A program made the position numbers and the translations under genes. The notes under the pieces are model-generated. The model was not told the DNA's origin, did no database searches, and was given only the letters and a program-made list of their open reading frames with translations. Below, in pieces: positions 8,706-62,406 of a stretch of DNA of 64,000 bases (within the stretch, counting starts at the first letter, position 1; every line of letters starts with the position of its first letter). Origin of the DNA: a phage; the sequence record PX436236.1; one strand, 5' to 3'.

Positions 8706-10037
8706 TCAAACGTAGTAGGCGTCAGTACGAGCACGAGTAATACTAACATAAGCCAGCTGTGAAGCTAAATTCGCATCAGCCATATGCATGCATGGAGTAT
8801 AGATGAAACTGTTTTGGACTGTAAGTCCTTGGGATTTATGAACAGTGCTCACAGGAAGAGCTCGAACCTTAGTAAACATTCTCTTAGCTTTCCAGAAATC
8901 AGCCCACTTAGGTTTCTTACCACTACCACGCATGGCTTTGTATTCAGTAGCAACCTTAGCCAAGAAATAATGGAACTTCTCAACCGAAGCCTCATCGATA
9001 ACCTTTAAATGCTCTACATAATACTCATCATCTTCATCGATAGATTCTACTTGCAGGTCCCAGTAATTAATCATTTGTCGAGTGCCTACATCCTTAGCAG
9101 ACAAGAACAATGAGGTGTGGTTCACATCCAGAATACGAACCATTTGACCGTTATTAAAAATGGTTTCAGAGAATTTCTTACCATCGTATTCAAGTTCCTT
9201 CATAAAAGGCTCTTGCATCACCAGGATTTCACCCTTGATATAAGGTGCATCGGTTTCATAAAGCTTTTTACGAATAATGCTATTCAGCTTTTCAACCGAT
9301 TTATTTGTATAAGCAAACATCCTATTTTCAAATAAGGCATCCGCGTCTTTTACAATGGAAAAATAATTCATCATAAAATCTTTTAAAGCAGTTTGAGATT
9401 TAAAACCATGGACACCATGTCCTTCGAATACACAATCTCTAAACCATCCGCCATTACGGATTTCAGTAGCAACCTCAATGATTGGAGCATTGCTACGCAT
9501 TACTTCGGTCAAATGCAATTGCTTGATTTTTGGATGGGTAAAGAACGGAGACAACTGTGGACTACCATCACTTCCAGGTTCCACTGGCTGTAGCTGAGCT
9601 CTGTCGCCAATCCCTAATACAGTACACCATGGTGGCACTGAAGATTCGATAATCTTAAACAGCTTACCGTCAATCATCGAGCCTTCATCAACAACCAGAA
9701 CGTTACATTTGCTCAAGTCAGGAGCTTCGCGTTGTTCAAAGATGTCCTGGTCTTCGTACGTAGTAGGGTTAATCTTTAAGATTCTATGGATTGTTGATGC
9801 TTCTTGACCTGCGAGTTTCGACAACACCTTTTTGGCCGCATGGGTAGGTGCAGTCAAAATAACTCCGAGTTCACCATTCTTGACTAGATGGTCAAGAATA
9901 AATTTGGTAAGGGTTGTTTTACCCGTACCAGCAGGGCCGTTCAATGTAATCCATTCGCCCTTACGTCGTTTAATAGCTTCAATGATTTCTTTAAAGGCCG
10001 TCCTCTGGCCGATGTTCAAGTCTTCAAATGTAATCAT
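8706..10037 (-). CDS. dda: Dda DNA helicase (SF1), 443 aa
   Basis: Walker A GPAGTGKTT and extensive similarity to remembered T4 Dda along the whole length. Confidence 0.9.
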   Translation of the reverse strand: MITFEDLNIGQRTAFKEIIEAIKRRKGEWITLNGPAGTGKTTLTKFILDHLVKNGELGVILTAPTHAAKKVLSKLAGQEASTIHRILKINPTTYEDQDIFEQREAPDLSKCNVLVVDEGSMIDGKLFKIIESSVPPWCTVLGIGDRAQLQPVEPGSDGSPQLSPFFTHPKIKQLHLTEVMRSNAPIIEVATEIRNGGWFRDCVFEGHGVHGFKSQTALKDFMMNYFSIVKDADALFENRMFAYTNKSVEKLNSIIRKKLYETDAPYIKGEILVMQEPFMKELEYDGKKFSETIFNNGQMVRILDVNHTSLFLSAKDVGTRQMINYWDLQVESIDEDDEYYVEHLKVIDEASVEKFHYFLAKVATEYKAMRGSGKKPKWADFWKAKRMFTKVRALPVSTVHKSQGLTVQNSFIYTPCMHMADANLASQLAYVSITRARTDAYYV

Positions 10038-10333
10038 GCCAATTTTACTCGCTTAACATATAAAGTGTCTAAAACTAATTTAAGTTCTCGGGCTCGTTCT
10101 TCGGTAGGATATACTGTTTTAGTTTCCCACTTATCAAACCACCATTTTCTAGGTGTGTACACCGTTTCAATGCGTCCCTTACTTAAATATTGTTTTGTAG
10201 TGTATGAATACCCAGCACATTCGAAATCAGCAGCGGCTTTTGTGGAATATAAGGTCACCTTTCCGTCATATTCCAATGGAATTTCATACCCATCTTTGTC
10301 CTTGTGAACTAATACGTATGCATAGTACATCAC
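10034..10333 (-). CDS. hypothetical protein, 99 aa (dda.1 position)
   Basis: ORF whose stop overlaps the dda start. Confidence 0.5.
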   Translation of the reverse strand: MMYYAYVLVHKDKDGYEIPLEYDGKVTLYSTKAAADFECAGYSYTTKQYLSKGRIETVYTPRKWWFDKWETKTVYPTEERARELKLVLDTLYVKRVKLA

Positions 10334-10334
10334 G

Positions 10335-11084
10335 TTAACCTCTAATCAGTGAAAAAATTGAAGCATTCAGCGGAAGACCTTTTTTCAACTTCATTTTGTC
10401 AATAAAAGAAAGGTGTTCTAAACGCTCCAGACCTTGAATAATTTTATCATACATATCGTAACGCATTTCTGCTTCAGACAATTTAAACTTGACACGCCAA
10501 TCGGGCCCGCCAATTAAAGATTTAAGACCCTTTTCCATAGTACCGATTGAAGCGTTAGACCCATGGATACGAGCTTTAACCGCGATGACCGAAGGGGTCT
10601 TATCAGTAGCTCCTGATTTAATAAGGTCCTTAAGACGTTTTTCACGCTTTTTAAGACCTCTTTGGGTATCTTTAATATTTTTAACGATTTTACGAATTTT
10701 ATAATAATTATCGGGAGTAACTTTAAAACTATTAGGCATTTTAGAACCACCTGAAATACGGGACGCTAAACGAGTCTGTGCACGTTTCAATTCATCTAAA
10801 GACAAATCAGCTCGCAACCCGTTGTACTTAACTTTAACCGGGATTACATTACCTTCGATATAACCTATATCGTTGTTAAAGCGTTCAAACGAAATCTTAT
10901 CTTTATCTGAATTCTCATCAAAGCGCTCGCCTGAATATGCACACACTTTTTGTTCAAGAAGTCTACGAACGTACTTACTAGACAGGTTAAAGTCCTTACC
11001 ACGTTTCTTGGCAGAGGCTTTAGTGTGTTCGCGCCGTTTGTAAACCTTTGCATCAAATTCATCGGTAGTTTTAATAGTAGGCAT
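10335..11084 (-). CDS. hypothetical basic protein, 249 aa (srd position; contains a degenerate HNH-like segment)
   Basis: Position between dda.1 and the mod genes; segment CAYSGERFDE...ISFERFNNDIGYIEGNVIPV; identity unverified. Confidence 0.5.
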   Translation of the reverse strand: MPTIKTTDEFDAKVYKRREHTKASAKKRGKDFNLSSKYVRRLLEQKVCAYSGERFDENSDKDKISFERFNNDIGYIEGNVIPVKVKYNGLRADLSLDELKRAQTRLASRISGGSKMPNSFKVTPDNYYKIRKIVKNIKDTQRGLKKREKRLKDLIKSGATDKTPSVIAVKARIHGSNASIGTMEKGLKSLIGGPDWRVKFKLSEAEMRYDMYDKIIQGLERLEHLSFIDKMKLKKGLPLNASIFSLIRG

Positions 11085-11113
11085 AATATTTTTCTCATCT
11101 TACGGACGATTAG

Positions 11114-11153
11114 CTGATAGGTCTATAGTATCATGTTGCTCGGTAAAGTAAAC
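11114..11153 (-). promoter_or_regulatory. Early-promoter cassette
   Basis: GTTTAC, 17 nt, TGATACTAT, AGACCTATCAGC upstream of the 10335-11084 ORF. Confidence 0.5.
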
Positions 11154-11222
11154 ACTTTTTTGCTTTAAATTTTCGACGGTATAATGAATCAAGGACTTTG
11201 CCTTTCAATTAAACCGGGCGCT

Positions 11223-11837
11223 TCAGTAAGAAAGAACGGAAAGATTCCAAATGGTGTAATTATTCCATTTAGGATTTCTCTCAATAGAGTCTACGCGCAG
11301 CGTAGTTCCCGCAGGGAACATCATCTCATCTTCATCATTTATTAATTGTAAGTTTGCTACACGGGTAGATTCAGGAAATGCGCCAGGGAACTCTTCAGGG
11401 GGTGCAGCACATAACATTTTAAAGATTTCTTCCTGATAATTGTACACAAATGGTGCATCATTAATACAAAAGATATTAAATGTGCCGTAGAAGTTATAAG
11501 ATGCGAAGTTACGAGCTACATTGAAATCTTTTGAGAAGCTCATTACTCGGTCGAATTCAATTACGGCACCTACACACATTGTGGACTCTAGATACTTCAT
11601 AGTCTTTTTAGATATGCCGCGATAGAGCTTATCAGGCACTACAGAAGTCAGGTTCTTACGGATGATTTTGTTCAGAGTTTCCTGGATAGTATCTGGTTTA
11701 TTTTCCATGCACTGCCAGAGGGTACTCTGTTCTAAATCAGAATACACCTCATCAATTTCTATCTGAGTATTCTCACGGAAATCATCGCATTTGGCATTGT
11801 TGATAAATTCTGCTAATTTATGGCTCGGATATAACAT
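11223..11837 (-). CDS. modA: ADP-ribosyltransferase, Mod family (ModA-like), 204 aa
   Basis: R-S-E toxin-type motifs: LYRGI, SFSKDF, EDEMMFPAG; assignment of A versus B is by position only. Confidence 0.6.
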   Translation of the reverse strand: MLYPSHKLAEFINNAKCDDFRENTQIEIDEVYSDLEQSTLWQCMENKPDTIQETLNKIIRKNLTSVVPDKLYRGISKKTMKYLESTMCVGAVIEFDRVMSFSKDFNVARNFASYNFYGTFNIFCINDAPFVYNYQEEIFKMLCAAPPEEFPGAFPESTRVANLQLINDEDEMMFPAGTTLRVDSIERNPKWNNYTIWNLSVLSY

Positions 11838-11850
11838 ATTATTCTCCTCA

Positions 11851-11892
11851 GTTGATAGAAAGATAGTACCACAAGCTTCCTTGCCTGTAAAC
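11851..11892 (-). promoter_or_regulatory. Early-promoter cassette
   Basis: GTTTAC, 17 nt, TACTAT, CTTTCTATCAAC, then GAGGAGAA RBS. Confidence 0.5.
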
Positions 11893-12461
11893 TAAAAATC
11901 CAACATTTTTAAATGAATTGTTTTATACTCGATTTCATACGGGTCTCTTTTGACGGTTTCGATTGCAACAATCTCAAATCGCGATTGGCTGGAGACCATG
12001 AACTCACATTCAGTTTCAACCATATCATAGAGGTCAATACGGGTTTCATCTATTTCAAGCTCATCTACATTCCCAGCAAGAACAAGGTCGATAGCATGAT
12101 TGTAGTAGTCGAAAATGAACGGTGCATTCCTGAGACTTAAAATGGTTTTGGTTCCATATTCCCATGCCCCTGCGAACTGACGAGCCTGAGAGTATTGTGT
12201 ACTAAAAGAAGTGACTCGACCAGGAGACCATTGACACCCTACTGAAAGGAGCTCTAATTGCTCAAGTTCTCTGGCGGTAATCCCACGATATAACTCTACT
12301 GGAACCGCTGAAGTAACATGCTTACGAACCAGCTTGTCAAGGTCGTAATGGAAGTTAGGGTCCTTTTTAGCATCCAGACATTTCTCTAACAAGGCTTGTT
12401 CAGATTTTGAAAATTTGGAATTGATTCGGTCTTGGTAAAGACATTTTTGTTCGATGTTCAT
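11892..12461 (-). CDS. modB: ADP-ribosyltransferase, Mod family (ModB-like), 189 aa
   Basis: R-S-E motifs: ELYRGI, SFSTQ, ECEFMV; paralog of the adjacent gene. Confidence 0.6.
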   Translation of the reverse strand: MNIEQKCLYQDRINSKFSKSEQALLEKCLDAKKDPNFHYDLDKLVRKHVTSAVPVELYRGITARELEQLELLSVGCQWSPGRVTSFSTQYSQARQFAGAWEYGTKTILSLRNAPFIFDYYNHAIDLVLAGNVDELEIDETRIDLYDMVETECEFMVSSQSRFEIVAIETVKRDPYEIEYKTIHLKMLDF

Positions 12462-12470
12462 ATGACCTCC

Positions 12471-12515
12471 GGTGATTTAGAGGTCATTATAACATGAAGG
12501 GAGGAGGTGTAAAAC
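12471..12515 (-). promoter_or_regulatory. Early promoter with RBS-containing hairpin
   Basis: GTTTTACA, spacer, TATAAT, then GACCTC...GGAGGTC inverted repeat that includes the SD. Confidence 0.45.
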
Positions 12516-12516
12516 T

Positions 12517-12705
12517 TTATTTTACCCAGGGAGCCCAGGGTGGAGGGTCTAAGTAATAAGAAGCAAGGTCACTAAGGACCTCTTTAGGCAACTTAAAACC
12601 ATGCTTCTGTATAATCATATCAAGTTCGTTGACAAGGTCAACAGGCGGCTCCTGAGTTGTTTCAGGCTCAGGGTCCGGAATGACAAACATATCAAATAAG
12701 TCCAT
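12517..12705 (-). CDS. hypothetical protein, 62 aa
   Basis: ORF. Confidence 0.4.
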   Translation of the reverse strand: MDLFDMFVIPDPEPETTQEPPVDLVNELDMIIQKHGFKLPKEVLSDLASYYLDPPPWAPWVK

Positions 12706-13193
12706 TAGTAACCACCGATAGGACCGTAGCCATACATACGAGCTCGCGCCTTAGCATCACGAATAGCTTCTTCAGTCATGGTAAAGCGCAATCCAATATC
12801 AAAGTGTTTCCAAATCTGACGTTCAACTTCAATAAGGTCTTCGGTAGCGGAAATCAGATAAGTACGACCTTTAAGACGTTCGTTGGACATTCTATCGGTA
12901 TCTTTATAGAAAATGTCCATTGTTCCTTCGCCATACGGGTCCGGATGGCGATAACCCTTGATATGTAATGCTTCAGCCAGGCTAAAAGGACAATCTTCAG
13001 CAACATCAACATTTTTGTTATGGTAAGCCTTCATTAGAATATTTTCTGGTGGCTTAATATCTTTTAATCGTGTTTCTAGCTGGGTTATAGAATTCGTACC
13101 ATTATCGACAAGGATAAGACACGCCGTAGCATCATAAGGACGCGTTTGTCCAGATGAATCACGTACATGGAATTCTAGTTCATAAACTTTCAT
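12705..13193 (-). CDS. hypothetical protein, 162 aa (mrh region)
   Basis: ORF; position only. Confidence 0.5.
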
Positions 13194-13347
13194 TATGATT
13201 TCCTCTTCTTAGTTTACCTACTAAAGGACCATCCGGAATTTTATTTTCTTGGATGTATTTCTCGTTTTCTTTCATCATTTTACTACCAATTTTAAGAAGC
13301 AAATCCAGTGCCTCTTTAGCTTGTTTTTCGGCCTCTTCAGTAGTCAT
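13180..13347 (-). CDS. possible small protein, 55 aa
   Basis: Own translation [55 protein letters not shown]; ATG overlaps the upstream stop. Confidence 0.3.
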
Positions 13348-14444: not shown

Positions 14445-14678
14445 TTATTTTATCATAACCTTTTTAGTTAAAAGCTCGTCAGGATGCCTTCTGGCGTATG
14501 AAGGGCTTTCTTTTACTGGGGTATTTGAAATAACATCGCTTAATTTATCAGCTCTAGCTTTTAATTCTACGTGTTCTTTTGAATCTTTAAAAGGATGACT
14601 AATTATTTGCAAATTAAGACCATGTAATTCATATTTAAGCCCTTCCATAAATCTTGCTGGGCCCCCGTAATTATTCAT
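14445..14678 (-). CDS. hypothetical protein, 77 aa
   Basis: ORF between soc and the HNH endonuclease gene. Confidence 0.35.
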   Translation of the reverse strand: MNNYGGPARFMEGLKYELHGLNLQIISHPFKDSKEHVELKARADKLSDVISNTPVKESPSYARRHPDELLTKKVMIK

Positions 14679-15519
14679 TTTCGAACCTCTTTACCATGTT
14701 TATATAATTTTCGTCTGGATAACCTAAACTAACTGCTAACTTTCTAAAATTCACATATTTTGGTTTGTTATTAGCAATCCATAAATTCCTAAGCTCAGTT
14801 TCATAATTCCATTTGAGTTGATTGCCTCTAGCAGTTTTGCTCAAAGTTTTTCCTTTATCTTTTAGAGCTTTTTCCGAAGACTGTTTTAATTTTTGGAGAT
14901 TTAAAACTTCCTCAACAGATAAATTATTTTCTTCTGCATAGCGCGCACAAAAATCTTTTACTGTAGCTATTAGACAGTTTTTGTGGGTACCTAAAACTTC
15001 CGGATTATTTTCTTCAACCAAAACTCCCCAGTATCTTCGATAGCGAGGCATATCCCGCGAAATCCAGTCATTATACCAGAAATCAAAATTAGAATACATA
15101 AAGGATTTTCTTTTACGGAGAATGTCTTGCTCTATCCACTCCCCGCGTTTATCGGCCCATAACTTAATAGTAAGGTCTTTCTCTAAATCAGAAAGCTTCT
15201 TAAACTGGGCACTATTTGTTAGTGTCATTCTCTGGAATGCATTAAGCAAACCCACCACCTGAGTTGAGCACAAAAGATAATGAACATATATGTGTTGGTA
15301 TATAGGAAGATAGACCCTATTCCAAGGAGAGATTTTAAAATCGCTGTATTCTGGAAATGCACACTTCGGAAGTATATGATGAGCTTCCGTTTTAGATTTG
15401 GTATGGACGTTTAGTTTATACTTATCTATAATTTTTAAGTAATCATCTAAAAGTTCCCATTGCGGGAACTTTTCTTTAAGAACAGATTTGAAATTAATAT
15501 CCATTGTCCTGGCGTTCAA
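14671..15519 (-). CDS. HNH homing endonuclease, 282 aa
   Basis: HNH motif EAHHILPK...N...H; C-terminal LGYP..NY segment shared with the HNH gene at 50778-51542; sits in the soc-56 interval. Confidence 0.6.
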   Translation of the reverse strand: MNARTMDINFKSVLKEKFPQWELLDDYLKIIDKYKLNVHTKSKTEAHHILPKCAFPEYSDFKISPWNRVYLPIYQHIYVHYLLCSTQVVGLLNAFQRMTLTNSAQFKKLSDLEKDLTIKLWADKRGEWIEQDILRKRKSFMYSNFDFWYNDWISRDMPRYRRYWGVLVEENNPEVLGTHKNCLIATVKDFCARYAEENNLSVEEVLNLQKLKQSSEKALKDKGKTLSKTARGNQLKWNYETELRNLWIANNKPKYVNFRKLAVSLGYPDENYINMVKRFENE

Positions 15520-17934: not shown

Positions 17935-18375
17935 TTAACCTCGATTCATAAAGGCATTAAAAATCTGGTCATCTATTGAATAAACCGGGGCTTCCAGAAT
18001 TTTCAACAGACTGTTTTTGATATACTTGCTAGGGATATCCATATTAACACAGTCGTTCAATTCGTTGTCCGGGAGAATATGTTTAAATTCAAACCCATCA
18101 AACTCAACCTTGTCAGGAATACCTTCAGCGAAAAAATAAACCAATTGGTGCATTGTATTGCACGAAAATAATTTAGACCTCACCGCGATAAGTTCTTGCC
18201 AATGGTTTAATTCTCTGTTAAGAAGTTTATGAGCCATTGTAATTCGATCATCGCTATCAACAAGAAAATAACCCAGGTATTGGTGGTCGTCGCTCCAAAA
18301 CATCCTGTATGCTTGTGCATTTGGATTTTTACAACGAAGTTTTTTGATAACTAAATTTCTGTTAATCTTATTCAC
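17935..18375 (-). CDS. hypothetical protein, 146 aa
   Basis: ORF. Confidence 0.5.
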   Translation of the reverse strand: MNKINRNLVIKKLRCKNPNAQAYRMFWSDDHQYLGYFLVDSDDRITMAHKLLNRELNHWQELIAVRSKLFSCNTMHQLVYFFAEGIPDKVEFDGFEFKHILPDNELNDCVNMDIPSKYIKNSLLKILEAPVYSIDDQIFNAFMNRG

Positions 18376-18721: not shown

Positions 18722-18925
18722 TTATTTTTCGTTAGAACGATAATCACACTCAAAAACTTTATTGTCATCAACAAAGGCTTTCACCAGCGCATTATTCACT
18801 TCTGCATACTGCACTGTAACCCATTCAATCATATTTTGGTCACTAACATCTAGAACGGTTTCTTTGGTAAACATATTACCATTTTCAAACCAACCAATAA
18901 ACACTACTTTCTCTAATTTAGGCAT
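18722..18925 (-). CDS. Dmd-like small protein, 67 aa (candidate antitoxin-type RNase inhibitor)
   Basis: N-terminus KVVFIGWFENGNMFTKE recalls T4 Dmd from memory; clear paralog of the next ORF. Confidence 0.4.
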   Translation of the reverse strand: MPKLEKVVFIGWFENGNMFTKETVLDVSDQNMIEWVTVQYAEVNNALVKAFVDDNKVFECDYRSNEK

Positions 18926-19120
18926 TTAGATTTCCTTAATACGTGCATCATGTTCATAAACTTCTACGCCATCAACATAGGCCTTGACTAGAATGTTATT
19001 GACTTCAGCGAATTGAGTAGCCACCCACACAATATCATTTTCAGGTACTGAAGCTTCTTTGGTAGTGGTATCATCATTATTAAAACAGCATACAAATTTT
19101 ACCGTAGTCAATTTGGACAT
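18926..19120 (-). CDS. Dmd-like small protein, 64 aa, tandem paralog
   Basis: Shares QYAEVNNALVKAFVD / QFAEVNNILVKAYVD with the neighbour. Confidence 0.4.
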   Translation of the reverse strand: MSKLTTVKFVCCFNNDDTTTKEASVPENDIVWVATQFAEVNNILVKAYVDGVEVYEHDARIKEI

Positions 19121-19438
19121 TTAGATTTCCTCACAGAAGGCCCATTCAGCATGATAAACCGTAGCGCCTTTAGTATCATTTAAACAAACCACATCCACCG
19201 GAGCAATTACACGATAAAGACGGGGTTCTCCTCCCACTGAACGAGCTGCACGTCCAGCATAAATCTTAGCCAAACCGATATCTTCAGTAAAGAACACACG
19301 ATTTAGGTTTTTCTTACGACCGGTTTCAGACAGAACTCCTGTTTCCTCAGGAGGACAAAGCATATTACCGATATTAGCGACACTACAACTTCCATGGTAA
19401 TACACTTTATATTCTGCTTTACAGTCGATGGTTTTCAT
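19121..19438 (-). CDS. hypothetical protein, 105 aa
   Basis: Start set at the ATG of MKTIDCK, preceded by GGAGAAC. Confidence 0.45.
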   Translation of the reverse strand: MKTIDCKAEYKVYYHGSCSVANIGNMLCPPEETGVLSETGRKKNLNRVFFTEDIGLAKIYAGRAARSVGGEPRLYRVIAPVDVVCLNDTKGATVYHAEWAFCEEI

Positions 19439-19450
19439 TTTGTTCTCCAA

Positions 19451-22517: not shown

Positions 22518-23411
22518 TTAAAGGACCACGTCCTCATAACTTGGCATTTCGTGCTCAGAATGGATATGGGCACCGAAATAAATGAATTCAGCTAGACCAG
22601 GATGGAATACTAAACCGGGATTCTCATGATAAATGATATGAGGTCTTGATTTCAGAATCTGATAATATTCAACCTTACTCGGTTTGAATTTAATAATCTC
22701 TACATCAGGACGATAGTCTTCACGCTTAAATGAATCATTCGGATCGGTGATATAAAGGCGAGAACCTTCAGCCGCAGCTTGGTCTACAACTCTTTCGAAT
22801 TGATAACATTTATCAGAGATACGGAATGGATGGAAAATACCATCAATTTTAATAGGCGCTAGACCTTCAGAGTAACGCTCAATTACTGCAGGATTAATTA
22901 CCTTTTGGTCTACAAAAATCTTATCAGAGGATGCACCTCGTGACACCAGGACGTCTTTCTGACATTGATTCAAGACCGTAGTATAAATCGAACGTTCAAC
23001 TGAACCCACGTCGGTATCAATAAACTCATCGATGTAATAACGAGGAACTTCAGGGTCCATTGTAATGTTAAAGTTGAATTGTACGGTATGAGCACCATCA
23101 TAACCTGTGATATCGGTTACCAATCCTGAGCAGTCATAGTATTCGATTAACGAATCAACAACGAACTCATTTTCAGACCAAAAATGTTTACGAGTTTCAT
23201 AAGCATTTTCTTTATACCAAAGAGGTACAAAATTCAGTTCAGGAAATAATTCAATGCATTCTTTGATATCGCTCGAATTTCTAGGATAAGCCAGATAATC
23301 ACCTGGGCAAGCACGGTTTAAATGGAGTTGAAAATTGCCGTCCTTAAGGACGGCATATTCACCTGTTTCGTAACTACGCATACTGAAAATAGGAACGATA
23401 AACAAACTCAT
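22518..23411 (-). CDS. protein of unknown function, 297 aa, occupying the T4 beta-glucosyltransferase slot
   Basis: No resemblance to remembered T4 beta-gt; its start overlaps the gene 42 stop by 4 nt. Confidence 0.6.
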   Translation of the reverse strand: MSLFIVPIFSMRSYETGEYAVLKDGNFQLHLNRACPGDYLAYPRNSSDIKECIELFPELNFVPLWYKENAYETRKHFWSENEFVVDSLIEYYDCSGLVTDITGYDGAHTVQFNFNITMDPEVPRYYIDEFIDTDVGSVERSIYTTVLNQCQKDVLVSRGASSDKIFVDQKVINPAVIERYSEGLAPIKIDGIFHPFRISDKCYQFERVVDQAAAEGSRLYITDPNDSFKREDYRPDVEIIKFKPSKVEYYQILKSRPHIIYHENPGLVFHPGLAEFIYFGAHIHSEHEMPSYEDVVL

Positions 23412-24106
23412 TTCAGGAATCCTCGAACGTAGTCAAAATCACGTTCAAATACGTGTGCACTAACCATAGTATGGGAATACGTACCCAGACCAACACCACA
23501 CTGTTCAGCAATAAAGGCCATCAGTTTACCCTGCAGATAGAAATCCAGCTGCATAACAATAGCACAGTTCTGTGAACGCATATGGGTATGTGCATAAAGA
23601 CGTCCATCACGAATATAATATGTCACCGAATCGGTACATGGGTATTCTAAGGATTCGTCAGAATCAAGGAGGGCTTGGTCTTGTTCTTGGAGAATTTGGA
23701 ACACAACTCGTCTCGAGTTAGGCTTTTCTTTAAGCTCTTTAAGTAAGGCTGGGAGTTGGGCCACAATTCGAGGTCCATAGAAAGTGTTGAAGTTTGCAGG
23801 CAATACGTCACTTTTCGGCTTATCAATGAACTTAGCAACATTAGGATATTCCTTAAATGCTTCGGCAGCATCAGTACCACCGGAAATCATAAACTTCCAA
23901 AAGGATTCGGCATAATCATAGTTGATACGATTAATACGAGGGTCGGTGAATTTATAGGTGCTTGCATCCAGTACTTCTACCGAAGCAGAACCAATTTCAT
24001 AACAACGGCCGATACGAGAATCAACTGCAAACTGTGGAGCTTCCAGGATTTCTTCGTTCATTTGCTTAAACGCGTTTTCAAAACTAACAGCGGTAATGTG
24101 TTTCAT
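23408..24106 (-). CDS. 42: dCMP hydroxymethylase gp42 (thymidylate synthase fold), 232 aa
   Basis: PNSRRVVFQ...YPCTDSVTYYIRDG...MRSQN...QLDFY aligns to T4 gp42 and has Asp at the cytosine-specificity position. Confidence 0.8.
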   Translation of the reverse strand: MKHITAVSFENAFKQMNEEILEAPQFAVDSRIGRCYEIGSASVEVLDASTYKFTDPRINRINYDYAESFWKFMISGGTDAAEAFKEYPNVAKFIDKPKSDVLPANFNTFYGPRIVAQLPALLKELKEKPNSRRVVFQILQEQDQALLDSDESLEYPCTDSVTYYIRDGRLYAHTHMRSQNCAIVMQLDFYLQGKLMAFIAEQCGVGLGTYSHTMVSAHVFERDFDYVRGFLK

Positions 24107-24639
24107 TTATTCACCTTATTTTCAATATATTCATTCAGACGTTTTAATTCTACCATATCGACGTTAAGCAAGTTATTATGGCCGTCGTGATTTAAGATTT
24201 TAAACACGTTTTCAAAACATGTTTCGTATTGGCGGATAGTTAGGTTGAACTCATCTTTGGTTAATTTAATAAGGTCATCTTCAAAGTCTTTATCCAGTGG
24301 ATTACGGGTTAAAATAATCTCAATGATATTGAATTCTTTTTTGAAATCAATCCAATCTTCTAGTTCTACATAAGGGTCCATTTCACCACGAAGGAATCCA
24401 GAGTAAACAATATTACTAGGATACCCACGGTCTAAGATGTAGACAAAATTAGGGTCTAAAAACTTATACAACGTCTCGACTAAAGCCTTGTCATTATCAG
24501 TCCCTAATGAAATGCATTTGCCATTAATCTTTTTAGGGAAATCAATAAGACGATATTTCTTATCAGATAAAAGTGATTCAATTAAAGTAGACTTCCCGGA
24601 ATTATCCGGGCCGTCGATAACAATGATTTTTGGTTTCAC
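24103..24639 (-). CDS. P-loop kinase, 178 aa
   Basis: Walker A IIVIDGPDNSGKST at the N-terminus; stop overlaps the gene 42 start by 4 nt. Confidence 0.65.
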   Translation of the reverse strand: MKPKIIVIDGPDNSGKSTLIESLLSDKKYRLIDFPKKINGKCISLGTDNDKALVETLYKFLDPNFVYILDRGYPSNIVYSGFLRGEMDPYVELEDWIDFKKEFNIIEIILTRNPLDKDFEDDLIKLTKDEFNLTIRQYETCFENVFKILNHDGHNNLLNVDMVELKRLNEYIENKVNK

Positions 24640-25034
24640 GGATGATATGCCTTATAGGTTTCAAGAGTTCCCTCACGAACCATTTCTTTAAAGTGGTCAG
24701 GACGGATTGCTCGGTCATCGATGATAAAAGTATAACTCGGCTTATGTGTAAGCAGATTGTGATATTTCAATCCAATCTTTTCAAGGTTCTTAACTAATGC
24801 AGGAACTACTTCAACCAAGATTCGACCTGGGCCGCATGAAGTCATACCACGGGCAGTGAACAAGGTAATCTCGTACCCTTCATCATAAAGCTTATTAATC
24901 ATGGACACCATTTCGGTGTCCGGTTTAAAGTTTTCGTAATCACGGTCATGGTTCCAAATCGTGATTGTGTTATCGATGTCAAAACATAAATGAGGCTTAT
25001 TTTCTACTCGATGTGACATTAAATTTTCTTCCAT
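24636..25034 (-). CDS. HAD-superfamily phosphatase, 132 aa
   Basis: Motifs FDIDNTIT, TLFTAR and IIDDR, similar in pattern to the T4 polynucleotide kinase phosphatase domain. Confidence 0.6.
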   Translation of the reverse strand: MEENLMSHRVENKPHLCFDIDNTITIWNHDRDYENFKPDTEMVSMINKLYDEGYEITLFTARGMTSCGPGRILVEVVPALVKNLEKIGLKYHNLLTHKPSYTFIIDDRAIRPDHFKEMVREGTLETYKAYHP

Positions 25035-26692
25035 TGTTTGTGGAGTTCAGTAGAACCTGTAGGTTTATATTTTACACCAGTTTCTTGGTCAAGCAAAACC
25101 CACTTATCAGGACAACGAGTGATAATTTGAGCCGTGATAGGGTCGCGAACTTCATCAACGAATTCACCTGTGATAAGCTTACGCTTACGAGGATGTCGCT
25201 TCAGCAGCACACTCAGTTGGTACAAACCGTTGTAATAAGCACCCAGAGCTTTCAGAGGGTTATTTTTAAAGTAACCTGCCAATGCCATCCAGATAACAGC
25301 AATCCAGAGCTTGTGCTTAAATGTACACATTGGAATATCATCTAAAGGCATAACCTTTTCAATATCAACGAATACACGAGTTCCGTTACGAGTTAAGCCA
25401 CCCCATAGAGGGTCAGAGTTAAATTTGTCATAACCATCGATAGAATAAAGCACCTTAGCTTCATCATAAATCGCAGGGCCTTTAGAACTATTACCAAAAT
25501 AACCACGTGGGTCGATGATTTTAATATTACCTTCGTCCGACAACATAATATTACTGTAGTGCGGGTCGCCATGAATAAGTTGGTACGGTTCTTTATGTTC
25601 AGACAGAATTTCTAAGGCGTGACGAAGAAGTTTTTCTGGGTCGCCTACCTTGAAGTCGTTAACATGGGTAATACCCTGTGGAGCAAAGCCTTCAATCAAT
25701 CCGGCAATAGAAGCATTACGAATAAGGACCTTGTCCAATACTTCTTTCTTAACATCAGAATACCATTGCTCATCGGACGGATTATCGATAGTTCCACCGA
25801 ACGAACGTAATGCACTAATAACCTTATAAACCATTAGGACTTTAGTTTCTTTAGACATAAACCGGTAGGCATCTGCCATGGTTCGACCAAAGATACGTTC
25901 CATTTTAATGAATTCGCCTGGAGCAAAGTCTACAATGCTAGGAACGAATTCGGAATCAATAGAATTATACCAATTGATTTCTTTAGATTGGATTTCTTTA
26001 CCCAATTCGTTAGTTGGTACTTTAATAGCTAGATTCTCGGTGAACTCTAATTTATTAAATTCACGGTTAATTTCAGAATCTTCATGCGCCTTAGCCAGTT
26101 TCAGTTTGTCACCAACATCAACTACAAAGTCTAACTTACGTTCAGTCAAATGGACCATTGAATCCAGGTTGTCAGCAAGGTCTTCACCATAATTAGAACG
26201 GTCGAAACCTGTCCAATTAGCCACCTGATACAAGCCAACTACGCCACCACCGGTACCAATTTCACGCAAGTACGGTTCTTCAAATGTAAAACGACAGTCA
26301 GTCCCATAGGTATAACAGTAGTCGTTATCCCACTCAACTTTATGACCTTCAGGAATAATATCACACCAGTTAAACAAGACATTGTGCCCAATGATATCTT
26401 CGGCAATGCAATCGATAGCATGAGCCGAACCATTGGCAACATCAACGTTACGAATAGTGAATTTAGGCTTATCACTATTAATCATGTTAATGGATTTAAT
26501 ATAGCCTTTAACGAGGTCGTTAAATTTGCTGTGAATAACCAGAATAATTTCATCTGATTGATTACTATACAAATCATACAAATGTTTTAATACAGTATGT
26601 TGTTTGTAGTTAACCAGTACCTTCGGGATTTCGTTGGTAATTGGATACAACCGTGAGCCAAGACCCGCGCCTAAAATAACAACCTTTTTCAT
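25019..26692 (-). CDS. bifunctional nucleotidyltransferase (N-terminal) / APH-choline-kinase-like kinase (C-terminal), 557 aa
   Basis: N-terminal VVILGAGLGSRLYPIT...KVLV signature; C-terminal HGDPHYSNIM...IIDPRG; start set at MKKVV, preceded by GAGGAA. Confidence 0.65.
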   Translation of the reverse strand: MKKVVILGAGLGSRLYPITNEIPKVLVNYKQHTVLKHLYDLYSNQSDEIILVIHSKFNDLVKGYIKSINMINSDKPKFTIRNVDVANGSAHAIDCIAEDIIGHNVLFNWCDIIPEGHKVEWDNDYCYTYGTDCRFTFEEPYLREIGTGGGVVGLYQVANWTGFDRSNYGEDLADNLDSMVHLTERKLDFVVDVGDKLKLAKAHEDSEINREFNKLEFTENLAIKVPTNELGKEIQSKEINWYNSIDSEFVPSIVDFAPGEFIKMERIFGRTMADAYRFMSKETKVLMVYKVISALRSFGGTIDNPSDEQWYSDVKKEVLDKVLIRNASIAGLIEGFAPQGITHVNDFKVGDPEKLLRHALEILSEHKEPYQLIHGDPHYSNIMLSDEGNIKIIDPRGYFGNSSKGPAIYDEAKVLYSIDGYDKFNSDPLWGGLTRNGTRVFVDIEKVMPLDDIPMCTFKHKLWIAVIWMALAGYFKNNPLKALGAYYNGLYQLSVLLKRHPRKRKLITGEFVDEVRDPITAQIITRCPDKWVLLDQETGVKYKPTGSTELHKQWKKI

Positions 26693-26752
26693 TATCTGTT
26701 CCTCAAGTGAATGTAGGTACATTATACACTATTTTTAATAAATTGGTATTGC

Positions 26753-27253
26753 TTAAATCTTATCTTTACCGATTTCAATACACTGTTCTATTGCCGCCGG
26801 TGCTTTGGTCTTGAGCTTATCGATTTGTTTCTTATAATCACGAGCTTTACCGAAGCTCTCGGTTTCGAGCATTTCGTAATAACGAGCCTCGTGGATGGAA
26901 ATCTGTAGATTGATATGGTTTACGCACATCGCATACAGTTTCTGCTTTTTGTACAAATCATCTTGACGCTTCATTTCTGCCTGGTGTTTGGCTAGTACCG
27001 CTTCACGCTTGGACTCTTGTTCACGTTGGAATTCGATTTCTTGTTGAGCATATTTTGCACAGTTATTACCGCATTGATTATTAGCTCGGGTGTACACAAG
27101 TCCAGAACCTGCACGGAATTTCATTTCGCCATCGAATTGTTTCTGTTCAGCTGCGATACGAGCTTTACCAACTTCATCAGCCGAAACTGCATCACCATAT
27201 TGGACCGCGCAACCTGATAGGAGCATACTCATTGCGATAATTAACTTTTTCAT
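26753..27253 (-). CDS. lipoprotein, 166 aa
   Basis: Signal peptide with lipobox LLSGC; coiled-coil-like remainder. Confidence 0.55.
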   Translation of the reverse strand: MKKLIIAMSMLLSGCAVQYGDAVSADEVGKARIAAEQKQFDGEMKFRAGSGLVYTRANNQCGNNCAKYAQQEIEFQREQESKREAVLAKHQAEMKRQDDLYKKQKLYAMCVNHINLQISIHEARYYEMLETESFGKARDYKKQIDKLKTKAPAAIEQCIEIGKDKI

Positions 27254-41994: not shown

Positions 41995-43068
41995 TTAAGA
42001 TTTCAAATAAGTTATATAACTTTCCAACCATTCAATCATTTCTGATTTTTCGGCAGTAGTCATAGGATTAACTATATCTTTAAAACTGTTAAGCATTACT
42101 TGAGACGTAACTTTTGTCTTTTCGGTTTTTACCAATTCGATAGAGCCAAGTTTTTTAATATGGTCTTCTTTGCTTTCGACTACTAATTTAACAGCTCTTC
42201 CATCTTTAATAGCTTTGTTAGCCTGACCGCGAGTCATACCGTAAAATTCTTCTAACTCGGAATTGGATAAAAATTTTGTTCCTGAAGAAACGTCCTGAAA
42301 TTTATAACGCTGACGAGCAATATCTGGTGGAAGGCCCCATCGGTCTTTAATTAGGTCGAGGGTTCCTTGAAGAAGCCTTGTTAAATGGTTGCTACTTAAA
42401 TCATTATTACGAGCGAATTCGTTTTGATTTATTACTTCCACCGGCTTGTTTTCTTCATAGTCCCATATAGTAAATTTAGAGCAATTATAGGTAACAGAAT
42501 GTTTTTCCATTTTAGAACGACCAAATTGCCATCCAGATTTAATATACTCACTAACTTCATCAGGTTTAACGTACTTGGTTTTCTGGCCAATTTTATACAT
42601 CATAGGCCAAGAAACATGCTCATTCCCTTTATCAAATTCCATCCATCTTGCAATATCATCCTCTGTTAAATCGTCAAAGCAGTTAGGGTTGAAATGCCCG
42701 CCAATTTGTTTATTGAGCCACATAGGGTCTCGTAAAACATCATTGGCTAATTGCATTTCCATTTCTGCCATAAGAGTTTTACCCCAAGTAGGGTACCATC
42801 CTACAATAAGATATTCTTTTGGACTTATACCCTTTTCTATCATTGCGTTCAATTCATTGGATGATGAGGTATAGGTTTTCCAATCAGATTCCTCAAACCC
42901 TTTTTTAGGACCACGTTTAAATGTGCAAGGTGCAGCTTTGATTCGTTTCCAAATCTTTTTAGCACCGACATATTTTTTGCCATCTTCAAAAGTGATTACA
43001 TACACAAATCCAATATAATTTTTAATATCAACTTCTTCAAATACCGCCCAATGCCCGAAATCTTGCAT
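41995..43068 (-). CDS. GIY-YIG (Seg-type) homing endonuclease, 357 aa
   Basis: N-terminal GFVYVITFEDGKKYVGA motif (GIY...YIG variant). Confidence 0.55.
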   Translation of the reverse strand: MQDFGHWAVFEEVDIKNYIGFVYVITFEDGKKYVGAKKIWKRIKAAPCTFKRGPKKGFEESDWKTYTSSSNELNAMIEKGISPKEYLIVGWYPTWGKTLMAEMEMQLANDVLRDPMWLNKQIGGHFNPNCFDDLTEDDIARWMEFDKGNEHVSWPMMYKIGQKTKYVKPDEVSEYIKSGWQFGRSKMEKHSVTYNCSKFTIWDYEENKPVEVINQNEFARNNDLSSNHLTRLLQGTLDLIKDRWGLPPDIARQRYKFQDVSSGTKFLSNSELEEFYGMTRGQANKAIKDGRAVKLVVESKEDHIKKLGSIELVKTEKTKVTSQVMLNSFKDIVNPMTTAEKSEMIEWLESYITYLKS

Positions 43069-54183: not shown

Positions 54184-54462
54184 TTATAGCTTTTTAAGCT
54201 TACGACAATAAGAATAGAACACGTCGTTAAAATTATATTCAACCCAATTCCTCTGTATAGGCGAGGTAATGGAAAGCATATAATGCGCTTTAATTAAATC
54301 CATCCCGTTTTTATTAGGACACTCTTTATTATTAGCATTATACGTCGCTGCTACAACCTCTATCTCTCTTTTGTAAGCCACATCATCCATGATAGGCGAA
54401 AGAACAATATAAGAAATAGCCACAGCGAACGCTAGAATTAAAATCTTTGAATTTAGGTCCAT
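54184..54462 (-). CDS. membrane protein, 92 aa
   Basis: N-terminal hydrophobic helix. Confidence 0.45.
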   Translation of the reverse strand: MDLNSKILILAFAVAISYIVLSPIMDDVAYKREIEVVAATYNANNKECPNKNGMDLIKAHYMLSITSPIQRNWVEYNFNDVFYSYCRKLKKL

Positions 54463-54469
54463 AATACCC

Positions 54470-55042
54470 TCAACTCGTTATTTCTATCCAGTGCTTCCTG
54501 CACAATGACACGTAAGAATCGTTGCCACCTATAGAAACTTGGGCGCCGTCCTTAATTGCGATACCATCCTGGACCCTAGCAGTCATAGTAGCTTTACGGC
54601 CACAATGGCACACACCTTTGTACTCAACGAGTTTATCTGCCGTAGCGAGTAATTCAGCAGAGCCAGGAAACAGTTTACCCTGAAAATCAGTTCTTAGCCC
54701 ATAGCACATAACCGGAACATTATAATTGTCTACTATCTTTGCCAGTTGTTTTATCTGTGCAGGTTCTAAGAACTGTGCTTCATCCACAAATACGCAGTGG
54801 ATATCTTTTTGAGATTCAGCCCAACGATAGAACTCGTATAGGTCCATATCCGGAGTCACGGCATTAGCCTCTTGACTAATCCCTATACGAGACGAAATGC
54901 TATGGCTTGATTCTCTATTGTCTATCGCAGGCTTTAAAAGGAGTACGCCCATACCACGTTCTTTGTAGTTATGAGCTGCCGTTAGCAATGAAGCGGTTTT
55001 CCCGGAATTCATCGCCGCATAATGAAAATAAAGTTGAGCCAT
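54470..55042 (-). CDS. tk: thymidine kinase, 190 aa
   Basis: Highly similar to T4 Tk (YAAMNSGKTASLL...CVFVDEAQFL...CHCG). Confidence 0.9.
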   Translation of the reverse strand: MAQLYFHYAAMNSGKTASLLTAAHNYKERGMGVLLLKPAIDNRESSHSISSRIGISQEANAVTPDMDLYEFYRWAESQKDIHCVFVDEAQFLEPAQIKQLAKIVDNYNVPVMCYGLRTDFQGKLFPGSAELLATADKLVEYKGVCHCGRKATMTARVQDGIAIKDGAQVSIGGNDSYVSLCRKHWIEITS

Positions 55043-55051
55043 ATTACCTTC

Positions 55052-55246
55052 TTAAAGACTATTTACATAAGCAATTAATTCATTTTCCTTTTTAGAAAAC
55101 TCATCCTCTTCACCACCTCTCCAATCCCAATCCAGAGAGTTATCAAATTCACATTCTATGTTGAGTTCCATAAGCTCATGGATAAGCTCAAACAATTTAT
55201 CTTTCTGTTCTTTACTCAGACTCATAACCATTGCACCTTTAAGCAA
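55052..55246 (-). CDS. hypothetical acidic protein, 64 aa
   Basis: ORF. Confidence 0.4.
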   Translation of the reverse strand: MLKGAMVMSLSKEQKDKLFELIHELMELNIECEFDNSLDWDWRGGEEDEFSKKENELIAYVNSL

Positions 55247-55434
55247 TATTCTTCTACATGCTGTTTACGTTTATTTTTATCTATAAAAATATATTCAACG
55301 TATTCACCGATATACCATTTATCAGTGTTGTGTTGACTTTTTATAGGGCATTTAGTTACTCGTGTTTCGGTCCAGCGTCGAATAATTTCCGCTTTGTTTT
55401 TAGGGTCAAACGGATGCGGGTAATGGGCTTTCAT
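55222..55434 (-). CDS. hypothetical protein, 70 aa
   Basis: ORF. Confidence 0.4.
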   Translation of the reverse strand: MKAHYPHPFDPKNKAEIIRRWTETRVTKCPIKSQHNTDKWYIGEYVEYIFIDKNKRKQHVEEYCLKVQWL

Positions 55435-55873
55435 AATCTACCACCACTAAATTAATATCAGGAGTAAACAAATTAATCAATTGATAAACCTTGTCCCAAT
55501 CACCACCAGCAATACCACAACCAATGCGAGGGATATAAATTCTTGGTTTAAACAAAAGACCTTTTGCTTGTTGATTTAATTCTATCATACAGTTTACTAA
55601 AGCACCATAATCAAGATTAGGGCCTGGTTCGTATTGGGTATATAAATTATAGCAAATTTGGCCATTATTACCTGTAGCTTGAGTAAACGTGCCAAGTTTT
55701 GCCAAATTGCCTAAATAAGTAGTTTTATCGATAGCGAGAATAGGCGGATAAGCCTTAGCTAATTGTCCAGCTACACCTGAACCCATTGTGTGGAAACAGT
55801 TGCACCCGTGTGCAACATTATTACCTTGAAGAAATAGGGCGACAATATCGCCCTTAATATAATCAATAATCAT
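55406..55873 (-). CDS. macro-domain-like protein, 155 aa (candidate ADP-ribose binding or hydrolase)
   Basis: N-terminal NNVAHGCNCFHTMGSGVAGQL resembles the macro-domain glycine-rich signature. Confidence 0.45.
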   Translation of the reverse strand: MIIDYIKGDIVALFLQGNNVAHGCNCFHTMGSGVAGQLAKAYPPILAIDKTTYLGNLAKLGTFTQATGNNGQICYNLYTQYEPGPNLDYGALVNCMIELNQQAKGLLFKPRIYIPRIGCGIAGGDWDKVYQLINLFTPDINLVVVDYESPLPASV

Positions 55874-56226
55874 TTAGAGTTTAATCCTCGGTTGTAAGAG
55901 TCAACGAGTCTGTCTACCATAGACGCGCACATTTCTTTGTACTTTTTATCAGATGGAATACATTCAGTAACGTTTAGACGTTGCTCGTATCTTTTAGAAA
56001 GAGTTTTCTCTTTCATTCGACGATGCTCTACGTCGTTCTGCCCATCTTTAAAAGCAGCTGTGATTTTTGAACTGAATTCGATAATGCATTCAGTATTACT
56101 CGGATGACAATAATCTTTTGCTGTACGGGTAGCATACTCGACAATTGAATTATTACTATCACCAACTTGTGACGCTAATACTCCCGGAGCAATCAACATA
56201 AGCGCTATAGTCATCTGCTTAATCAT
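55870..56226 (-). CDS. secreted protein, 118 aa
   Basis: Cleavable signal peptide. Confidence 0.45.
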   Translation of the reverse strand: MIKQMTIALMLIAPGVLASQVGDSNNSIVEYATRTAKDYCHPSNTECIIEFSSKITAAFKDGQNDVEHRRMKEKTLSKRYEQRLNVTECIPSDKKYKEMCASMVDRLVDSYNRGLNSK

Positions 56227-56766: not shown

Positions 56767-56778
56767 GAGACCTCATTA

Positions 56779-57237: not shown

Positions 57238-57253
57238 TTTGTAATCTCCTGTA

Positions 57254-57294
57254 GTTGATAGGTCTATAGTACCACGTCTACAGGAGATGTAAAC
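57254..57294 (-). promoter_or_regulatory. Early-promoter cassette upstream of regB
   Basis: GTTTACA-TCTCCTGTAG-ACGTGGTACTATAGACCTATCAA-CTACAGGAGA: perfect 10-bp inverted repeat of spacer and SD region. Confidence 0.6.
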
Positions 57295-57298
57295 TGCT

Positions 57299-57508
57299 TT
57301 ATTCTTGGAATGGGGTAAGTTTTCCAGCAGCTGAACAAATTTCTACCAGTACAGGGTAAAACTCTTTCACTTGTTCAAGGCGTTGGGCTGCATACTGTAC
57401 TTCACCTTCTTCGAGACAAGCCATTTGGTCGTCAAGCAAGTATTTGTGGTAGCCAGTACAGGCTTCACCGATGATACGCTGGAAATCTTGTAAACTTTCA
57501 ATTTTCAT
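57299..57508 (-). CDS. hypothetical protein, 69 aa
   Basis: Start set at MKIESLQD, preceded by GAGGAAA. Confidence 0.45.
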   Translation of the reverse strand: MKIESLQDFQRIIGEACTGYHKYLLDDQMACLEEGEVQYAAQRLEQVKEFYPVLVEICSAAGKLTPFQE

Positions 57509-61727: not shown

Positions 61728-62177
61728 TCAAAAGAGCGAATCTAAAACCTTAAACATCGACGGGCCCATGACATATTCCCATTGCGGACGTTTAATCAAG
61801 GCAAAAGCATCAAATTCAGGAATAGTACGACCGTCAGGGAACGTATGGTAAGCCGTACATTTGCAATCCTTGAACTGCTCGTGTTCCACAGGCACCGTAT
61901 ATAAGAACAGATGTAGATTCTTATTGCTTGAATATTTGAACTCACCCAGGTCTTTCAGGAACGCAGGATCGTATGCTGTGAATCCAATCTCTTCTTCGGT
62001 TTCGCGCATTGCCGCTTGAATGGGCTCTTCGCCTGGTTCGACATGACCCTTAGGAATGTCCCATTTATGACGCATATTCTCTGGATTACGAGAGCCTGTT
62101 ACACGGCCCATGACCAGTTCTTTATCAACGGTCATGAATAAAATACCGGCAGATAGTTCTTTCACTTTCTTACTCAT
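61728..62177 (-). CDS. nudE: Nudix hydrolase NudE, 149 aa
   Basis: Nudix box GHVEPGEEPIQAAMRETEEEIGF; start set at MSKKVKEL. Confidence 0.75.
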   Translation of the reverse strand: MSKKVKELSAGILFMTVDKELVMGRVTGSRNPENMRHKWDIPKGHVEPGEEPIQAAMRETEEEIGFTAYDPAFLKDLGEFKYSSNKNLHLFLYTVPVEHEQFKDCKCTAYHTFPDGRTIPEFDAFALIKRPQWEYVMGPSMFKVLDSLF

Positions 62178-62406
62178 CGTCTCGTTCCCATGATTGTTTA
62201 AAAATATCTTGCATAATAATTTGAAGTCTATTTTCTGATGATGGACTTTCACTATCAGACACTTGAAGCATATAGTCACCAATAGGACAGAACATATCCA
62301 TATCGCTTTCTAAGTCTTCTTTAATTTTCTCTTCTGATGTTCCGGTATCATAGGAATACAGGTAAGAATCACATGACTCAGATTTAATATAAATTGCAAT
62401 ACTCAT
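62170..62406 (-). CDS. hypothetical acidic protein, 78 aa
   Basis: ORF. Confidence 0.45.
   Translation of the reverse strand: MSIAIYIKSESCDSYLYSYDTGTSEEKIKEDLESDMDMFCPIGDYMLQVSDSESPSSENRLQIIMQDIFKQSWERDDE

Follow-up and report, generated by a model that had tools for sequence, protein, structure and literature searches.

The DNA analysed here is a stretch of 64,000 nucleotides from a phage (sequence record PX436236.1, one strand), referred to below as the window. It carries two neighbouring genes for Mod-type ADP-ribosyltransferases and, elsewhere, a gene for a small protein with a macrodomain, the type of fold that binds or removes ADP-ribose. An earlier note on this DNA had suggested that the phage may encode both writers and a reader or eraser of ADP-ribosylation. 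The three genes in question are the following.

11223..11837, minus strand: Mod-family ADP-ribosyltransferase in the ModA position, 204 amino acids (phrog_832, T4 BLASTP, motif, synteny)
11892..12461, minus strand: Mod-family ADP-ribosyltransferase in the ModB position, 189 amino acids (phrog_832, T4 BLASTP, motif, synteny)
55406..55873, minus strand: single-domain macrodomain protein, 155 amino acids, ortholog of T4 Tk.4, also named AdfM (Pfam Macro, phrog_335, T4 BLAST, synteny, AlphaFold2, Foldseek)

The region around the macrodomain gene (54400-57300) has 99.7% DNA identity with Escherichia phage vB_EcoM-E33 and about 99% with phages QL01 and LQ5, and the region around the mod genes (10000-13300) has 94-96% DNA identity with phages AnYang, PSD9, QL01 and Bp7. 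QL01 belongs to the genus Dhakavirus (Straboviridae, Tevenvirinae) and its gene map is collinear with the window. The window is that of a T4-like, Dhakavirus-type coliphage with the standard T-even set of ADP-ribose genes.

Two Mod-family ADP-ribosyltransferases

Both mod open reading frames (ORFs), like that of the macrodomain protein, are present at the coordinates given in the earlier note and lie on the minus strand. The two mod products match PHROG 832, 'RNA polymerase ADP-ribosylase' (E 8e-45 for the 204-residue and E 8e-38 for the 189-residue protein), as well as T4 ModA and ModB. The 189-residue protein is clearly ModB-like in sequence, with 34% identity to T4 ModB (BLASTP E 1e-24) and only 24% to T4 ModA (E 4e-5). 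The 204-residue protein has 38% identity to T4 ModA (BLASTP E 7e-26) and 33% to T4 ModB (E 6e-27). Since these two scores are about equal, we call it 'ModA' by gene position; the QL01 annotation of the gene in this position reads 'modA gene product'. Homologs of the Mod proteins are not captured by Pfam, it seems, as both proteins gave sub-threshold noise only (DRAT, E 0.059; Methyltransf_7, E 0.024), and for this reason PHROGs and direct comparison with T4 were used instead. NCBIfam had no family-level match for either protein.

A four-way alignment with T4 ModA and ModB bears out the claim that both paralogs keep the R, S-x-S and E-x-E motifs. The residues are R73, S100-F-S102 and E169-D-E171 in the 204-residue protein and R59, S85-F-S87 and E151-C-E153 in the 189-residue protein; R73, S100, E169 and E171 (204-residue numbering) are invariant among the four sequences. 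Both proteins thus show the R-S-EXE signature. In T4 ModB, the substitution R73A kills both ADP-ribosylation and RNAylation, the attachment of RNA (PMC10468400). The order of genes in the window is dda, dda.1, srd, ModA-like, ModB-like, modA.2-like and Mrh-like, the same as in T4, where srd, modA and modB are followed by modA.2 and modA.3/mrh-like genes. The window proteins are also similar to the T4 proteins in size and share the R, S-x-S/T and E-x-E residues, yet they are only 33-38% identical to them.

The modA and modB genes of T4 have been characterised for decades, and their products are early proteins. The two window proteins would likewise be early-expressed, NAD-dependent, arginine-specific R-S-EXE transferases that reprogram host RNA polymerase and translation factors, and the ModB type may also be able to attach NAD-capped RNA (RNAylation). 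Two promoter-like sequences were found in the mod region.

12486..12513, minus strand: sigma-70-like promoter match just upstream of the ModB-like start codon, TTTACA, 16-nt spacer, TATAAT, with TG, 11/12 to consensus
11863..11891, minus strand: weaker sigma-70-like match in the spacer upstream of the ModA-like start codon, TTTACA, 17-nt spacer, TACTAT, with TG, 9/12 to consensus

The total of sigma-70-like matches in the mod region is not above that expected from shuffled sequence, so these two fit early mod expression but do not establish it.

A macrodomain protein orthologous to T4 Tk.4

The third gene had been singled out in the earlier note for a macro-domain-like, glycine-rich segment in its product, which is found as HGCNCFHTMGSGVAGQL at residues 22-38. 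A domain search gave a match to Pfam Macro (PF01661) above cut-off (E 4.9e-8, 33.4 bits against a cut-off of 22, profile positions 2-117 of 118), and PHROG 335 matched with E 6e-67. Structure prediction confirmed the macro fold with its three alpha/beta/alpha layers. The AlphaFold2 model, built with 36 homologs, has a predicted local distance difference test score (pLDDT) of 94 and a predicted template modelling score (pTM) of 0.88. In a Foldseek comparison with the Protein Data Bank (PDB) the leading matches were TARG1, Poa1p (rank 3), Bt_1257 and the DarG macrodomains of M. tuberculosis and T. aquaticus, followed by coronavirus Mac1; the top matches have E-values of 7e-10 to 3e-7 and template modelling (TM) scores of about 0.7-0.85. 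There were 145 fold matches in the PDB at E <= 0.001, and macrodomains make up nearly all of the 50 listed. With scores far beyond chance, the 155-residue protein is a genuine macrodomain, and the lack of a macro fold that the earlier note had named as a refutation is therefore not what was found.

Orthology to T4 Tk.4 is indicated by both sequence and gene order. The two proteins are 53% identical over 155/155 residues (E 8e-63), and the order tk, tk.1-3, tk.4, vs, vs.1, regB is common to the window and T4. In both phages the macrodomain gene is flanked by a tk.3-like gene (DUF7202) and vs, and its start codon overlaps the vs stop codon (ATGA). By these comparisons the protein is the Tk.4 ortholog. 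At 155 residues the two are equal in length, and they have identical AHGCNCFHTMGSGVAGQL and NLYTQ motifs and all candidate catalytic residues in common, whereas the second glycine loop reads GCGIAGGDW in the window protein and GAGIGKGNW in T4. The genome deposited for QL01 already includes a protein identical to the window Tk.4 ortholog, and a 2006 paper had recognised tk.4 orthologs as A1pp/macro proteins (PMC1524935). Alignment-built hidden Markov models (HMMs) run against the 641 six-frame ORF segments of the window found no further paralog of Mod, of the macrodomain protein or of the mini-ADP-ribosyltransferase candidate described below.

A glutamine-type active site

The key residues of the 155-residue protein are H22, N25, the G31-S-G33 loop, Q80 and the G118-C-G-I-A-G-G124 loop. 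In the 36 homologs, down to 36% identity, H22, G23, N25, G33, Y78, T79, Q80, G118 and G120 are invariant, and the two glycine-rich phosphate/ribose loops, G31-S-G33 and G118-x-G120-x-x-G123-G124, are conserved. The predicted ADP-ribose-binding loops are intact.

A profile of the family searched against PDB sequences gave Bt_1257 (5e-19), TARG1 (2e-17), SCO6735 (3e-16), Poa1p (5e-14), M. tuberculosis DarG (3e-10) and T. aquaticus DarG (6e-9). Human TARG1 and DarG of the DarTG2 system share the ALC1-like fold class with the window protein (TM 0.7-0.85), and the reaction proposed for it is the same, hydrolysis of thymidine-linked ADP-ribose (dT-ADPr) on single-stranded DNA (ssDNA). Their catalytic residues differ from those of the window protein, in which Q80 aligns with the catalytic K84 of TARG1 and A122 with D125, so that the Lys84/Asp125 dyad of TARG1 is not present; DarG K80 corresponds to the TARG1 K84 position (PMC9411070). 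The better model is the Gln-type, ALC1-like pair Bt_1257 and SCO6735, the latter from Streptomyces coelicolor, which with TARG1 are the leading sequence matches among solved structures. Q80 aligns with the Gln of Bt_1257, H22 and N25 align with H24 and N27 of SCO6735, and the window protein shares with this pair the Gln at the DarG K80/TARG1 K84 position, the His and Asn of the HxxN motif and the GCG(I/L)AGGxW loop. The aligned residues define an active site that is of the Gln type of SCO6735 and not of the Lys type of DarG and TARG1. The window protein differs from SCO6735 and Bt_1257 in its short loop, in having Ser32 in place of SCO6735 K34, and in its overall identity of about 25%.

The biochemistry of SCO6735 has been worked out in some detail (PMC9411070). 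The Lys position is taken by Gln85, and activity is lost in both the Q85A and the Q85E variant. The enzyme outpaces DarG and TARG1 in cleaving DarT-made dT-ADPr on DNA and relieves the toxicity of DarT, and a mechanism with an activated water has been proposed. SCO6735 and TARG1 also remove Glu/Asp-linked ADP-ribose from proteins. Catalytically dead SCO6735 still inhibits DarT by binding, more strongly than DarG or TARG1.

Two more specific identities were considered and rejected. The protein is not a DarG, as it has neither the catalytic Lys nor the DarT-binding C-terminal domain and no darT lies next to it; the neighbours of the gene are the tk.3-like gene and vs. The NCBIfam equivalog for DarG (NF048014) scored 20.6 bits against a cut-off of 250 and covered profile positions 3-138 of 338, the macro part only. 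Nor is it an arginine-specific macrodomain (MavL/DUF4804, Larg1), since there was no DUF4804 match, Pfam Macro being the sole Pfam match at E <= 0.1, and the active site is of a different class.

A likely role in countering DarT2

In a HIDEN-SEQ transposon screen, tk.4 was the single significant T4 gene specifically required on a host expressing DarTG2, and a clean knockout of tk.4 made T4 sensitive to DarTG2, whence the new gene name adfM (anti-DarT factor Macrodomain; bioRxiv 10.1101/2025.11.20.689424). Another factor of this sort had been predicted a year earlier from the resistance to DarTG2 that T-even phages retained without either anti-DarTG1 factor (PMC11257639). We consider it likely that the 155-residue macrodomain is an anti-DarT2 enzyme which cleaves thymidine-linked ADP-ribose on phage ssDNA through its Gln-type site, comparable to an orphan antitoxin, and that the writers and the eraser of this phage act on different substrates. 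This proposal draws on orthology, fold, active-site type, synteny and distribution as found here, and on the T4 anti-DarTG2 phenotype, SCO6735 biochemistry and Mod chemistry from the literature. The anti-DarTG2 phenotype itself belongs to T4 only; we infer the same activity for the window ortholog.

In the proposed sequence of events, a host DarT2-type toxin would ADP-ribosylate thymidines in single-stranded phage DNA and so block replication. The phage macrodomain would hold the ADP-ribose via its two glycine-rich loops, and the N-glycosidic bond between thymidine and ribose would be hydrolysed by a Gln-centred, water-activating site of the SCO6735 type (H22, N25, Q80). Freed ADP-ribose could then be degraded by NudE, for which the window also has a gene.

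61728..62282, minus strand: ortholog of the Nudix hydrolase NudE (e.1) (Pfam NUDIX, phrog_1185, T4 NudE BLAST, synteny)

The NudE ortholog matches Pfam NUDIX (E 1.3e-14) and phrog_1185 (E 1e-72), has 60% identity to T4 NudE (E 2e-67) and adjoins the lysozyme gene e as it does in T4. Its listed TTG start is probably too far upstream, and an internal ATG would give a protein of about 150 residues. In the T4 record NudE is entered as 'active on FAD, diadenosine polyphosphates, ADP-ribose and NADH', from which we infer that the ortholog could dispose of ADP-ribose freed by the macrodomain.

Several points weigh against this proposal. The T4 Tk.4 result comes from a preprint and is genetics only, with enzymatic removal described by its authors as what 'seems likely' (bioRxiv 10.1101/2025.11.20.689424), and the enzymatic role of both T4 Tk.4 and the window ortholog is a predicted one. 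By alignment, the window protein lacks the catalytic lysine of DarG and TARG1. The phage family also lacks the 'mobile loop' of SCO6735 and Bt_1257, visible as a six-residue gap in the profile after the YTQ strand; this loop is short in the window protein and most of its close homologs and about 5-6 residues longer in the SCO6735/Bt_1257 subclass. Because the longer loop is missing, the mechanism is an extrapolation, and the short-loop, Gln-type variant is one without direct biochemical precedent. The dual activity of SCO6735 and TARG1 and the binding of DarT could mean a broader substrate range or another mode of action, and 53% identity to T4 Tk.4 leaves room for a shift in specificity.

One such broader reading is that DarT2 is neutralised mainly by binding, or that other defence-related ADP-ribose marks are erased (Glu/Asp-linked on protein, on RNA, or ADP-ribose-derived signals), with DarTG2 as one of several targets. 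The inhibition of DarT by dead SCO6735, the DNA and protein activities of SCO6735 and TARG1, the very wide spread of the macro family over unrelated phages and the stacking of several anti-DarT factors by T-even phages (PMC11257639) all speak in its favour. However, the invariance of ADP-ribose-binding and putative catalytic residues in the 36 homologs argues for selection on catalysis, and the domain with which DarG binds DarT is absent from this protein of 155 residues, as the macro-only match to the DarG profile indicates. We regard this reading as plausible but unlikely.

Another possibility is a small-molecule enzyme, either a Poa1p-like ADP-ribose-1''-phosphate phosphatase or an O-acetyl-ADP-ribose deacetylase, clearing metabolites of RNA repair or of sirtuins. 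Poa1p is among the best matches by both sequence and fold, and database labels point the same way: RefSeq has T4 Tk.4 as 'phosphatase; contains A1pp phosphatase motif', the PHROG family is also labelled 'phosphatase', and JGI labels homologs O-acetyl-ADP-ribose deacetylase. According to a proposal by Iyer et al., soluble ADP-ribose derivatives are the main substrates of phage macrodomains (PMC9503650). These 'phosphatase', 'A1pp' and deacetylase labels are, however, transfers of domain names, and no Tpt1/KptA or sirtuin source of such metabolites was found among the scanned ORFs of the window. The phenotype of the T4 knockout is specific to DarTG2, and the closest characterised relative with the same Gln site, SCO6735, works on DNA. 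An enzyme of small molecules seems to us quite improbable.

The name AdfM has also been given, independently, to gp104 of phage PhiKZ (PMC13309987), which like Tk.4 is a single-domain phage macrodomain countering DarT2 and removes ADP-ribose from TNTC ssDNA in vitro (Cell Rep 2026, PMC13309987). PhiKZ gp104 (L006 22518-23006) has only 18-23% identity to the window protein, with an hhalign probability of 96%, and is, unlike it, imported into the phage nucleus. Near the catalytic strand it has P-T-K where the window protein has Y-T-Q, an alignment that is ambiguous there; the sequence suggests that gp104 is of the DarG-like Lys type. The two 'AdfM' proteins are from different branches of the macrodomain fold, and their role is either convergent or shared.

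Do the writers and the eraser form a cycle?

The idea that writers and a reader or eraser occur together in this phage holds as far as the coexistence of the genes, the macro fold and, probably, the function as an eraser are concerned. Its implied pairing of the macrodomain with Mod-made marks is unsupported in view of arginine chemistry, the DarTG2 phenotype, gene distance and phylogenetic distribution. According to such a model, the macrodomain would read or erase ADP-ribose or RNA-ADP-ribose marks made by ModA, ModB or Alt and so create a reversible, timed signalling cycle. Writers and macrodomain do share one genome, with Mod acting early in T4, and arginine-specific macrodomains exist (MavL, Larg1, CG2909; PMC10951314), which makes the chemistry possible for the fold. 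Relatives such as SCO6735 and TARG1 are also active on protein ADP-ribose.

The marks left by T4 ModB are, however, arginine N-glycosides, which are removed by ARH1 and not by hydroxylamine, HgCl2 or ARH3 (PMC10468400). No activity on arginine-linked ADP-ribose has been reported for the MacroD, PARG and ALC1-like classes, and the catalytic residues of the MavL class have no counterpart in TARG1/DarG and the ALC1-like class (PMC10951314); the window protein has no match to the MavL class. A distance of 43 kb separates the mod genes from the macro gene, and they belong to different gene blocks and transcription units. In T4, it was specifically on DarTG2 hosts that the tk.4 phenotype appeared. 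The macro family also extends to phage groups beyond the listed enterobacterial T4-like range of Mod. A tblastn search found the family in 2734 phage records of many genera, its carriers including Felix O1-like, PAK_P1-like, rV5-like and Vi1-like phages and phages of Campylobacter, Aeromonas, Vibrio and Cellulophaga. For Mod homologs the count was 1064 records, and those listed by organism or sampled as rows are T4-like phages of enterobacteria, about 160-175 kb in size. Since the macro records outnumber the Mod records and the ranges differ, most carriers of the macrodomain have no detectable Mod. A Mod-macrodomain cycle is in our view very improbable. The writers and the eraser coexist but probably act on different substrates, host proteins and phage DNA, respectively, and in different conflicts.

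A third candidate writer and its neighbours

Besides the Mod pair, the window has a candidate for a small ADP-ribosyltransferase (mini-ART), which the earlier note had missed, as it had NudE. It sits just after the gene 41 helicase and is followed directly downstream by two Dmd genes.

19121..19450, minus strand: mini-ADP-ribosyltransferase candidate of the H-Y-E clade (Arr/p0068-like), 105-109 amino acids (sub-cut-off Arr matches, conservation, fold, context)
18722..19120, minus strand: tandem Dmd paralogs, 18926-19120 (64 amino acids) and 18722-18925 (67 amino acids) (Pfam Dmd; phrog_2102)

The matches of the mini-ART candidate to Pfam Arr-ms (E 0.029) and NCBIfam rifampin_ARR (E 0.079) are both below cut-off. 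In its family of 30 homologs, H19-G20 and Y64 are invariant and E107 is nearly so. The AlphaFold2 model has a pLDDT of 85, and in the PDB its fold comes closest to that of Arr (2hw2 and 9iaf; E about 0.01, TMq 0.58), with KptA and the A chains of pertussis and cholera toxins next; no match reaches E 0.001. Two sources label homologs 'ADP-ribosyl transferase'. We regard 19121-19450 as a probable H-Y-E mini-ART and a third candidate writer of ADP-ribose. The Dmd pair matches Pfam Dmd above cut-off (E 1.3e-12 and 4.7e-22). A pair of 'p0068-family ART toxin + Dmd antitoxin' was predicted by Iyer et al. (PMC9503650), and the gene context found here fits such a toxin-antitoxin-like pair.

A second, phage-internal job could be imagined for Tk.4 besides the countering of DarT2, namely removing non-arginine ADP-ribose (on nucleic acid or on Glu/Asp) made by the mini-ART, or trimming RNAylation products. 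If true, a Dhakavirus-type phage would be a self-contained writer/eraser system, but we give this second job hardly any credence. The mini-ART gene is not in T4, and because T4 keeps tk.4 without it, the macrodomain is independent of the mini-ART. For other ADP-ribose functions, a Pfam scan of 20 further large ORFs, with short ORFs not exhaustively covered, found no NADAR, ARH or sirtuin domain and had NudE as its sole finding.

Other features of the window

The slot of T4 gene 61.2 (AdfA, anti-DarT1) at 17935-18375 (minus strand) is occupied by an unrelated 146-residue protein (phrog_8539, function unknown). An AdfA homolog was rejected here, as only the last 14 residues (SIDDQIFNAFMNRG) are 100% identical to T4 gp61.2. 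It seems that one gene has replaced another at a hot spot of counter-defence and that the junction was kept where the next gene, sp, begins.

The block between uvsX and the DNA polymerase gene (22518-27253, minus strand) contains a thymidylate-kinase-like gene (24103-24639), the gene of a 567-residue protein (25019-26722) in which NTP_transferase and APH-kinase-like domains are combined, and genes for two proteins without known function. From the collinear QL01 map, the block should also contain thymidylate-synthase-like and 'phosphoheptose isomerase' genes, expected by collinearity only. We presume that it may be a sugar-nucleotide cassette for a non-glucose modification of hydroxymethylcytosine.

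Two ORFs resemble homing endonucleases. One of 282 residues (14671-15519, minus strand; phrog_655, E 7e-31) adjoins gene 56, a position at which the QL01 annotation has no ORF of that size; the other is a 357-residue SegE-like GIY-YIG protein (41995-43068, minus strand; Pfam E 5e-34). They may account for part of the difference in length from QL01.

The two regions compared at the DNA level have different closest relatives. The tk-regB region is the one 99.7% identical to vB_EcoM-E33, and the srd-mod-mrh region (10000-13300) has its best match, 96%, in AnYang, with vB_EcoM-E33 absent among the 15 matches listed. The 204-residue ModA-like protein is 100% identical to its counterpart in Shigella phage PSD9. 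Mosaicism of the window between these two regions is possible.

Conclusions

Every component of this ADP-ribose gene set has been described before in T4 or related phages, the macrodomain nature of tk.4 in 2006 and its anti-DarTG2 role in 2025. What the present comparison adds concerns how they may fit together. That one phage genome encodes both writers of ADP-ribose and an eraser need not mean that they form a cycle. If the 155-residue protein acts against DarT2 as proposed, the writers would attack host proteins, and the eraser would most likely repair phage DNA after attack by a host toxin. The name AdfM covers two distantly related branches, T4 Tk.4 and PhiKZ gp104, and annotation transfer between them needs care. 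The T-even Tk.4 family has a predicted SCO6735-type Gln site, so its chemistry would not be simply 'DarG-like'.

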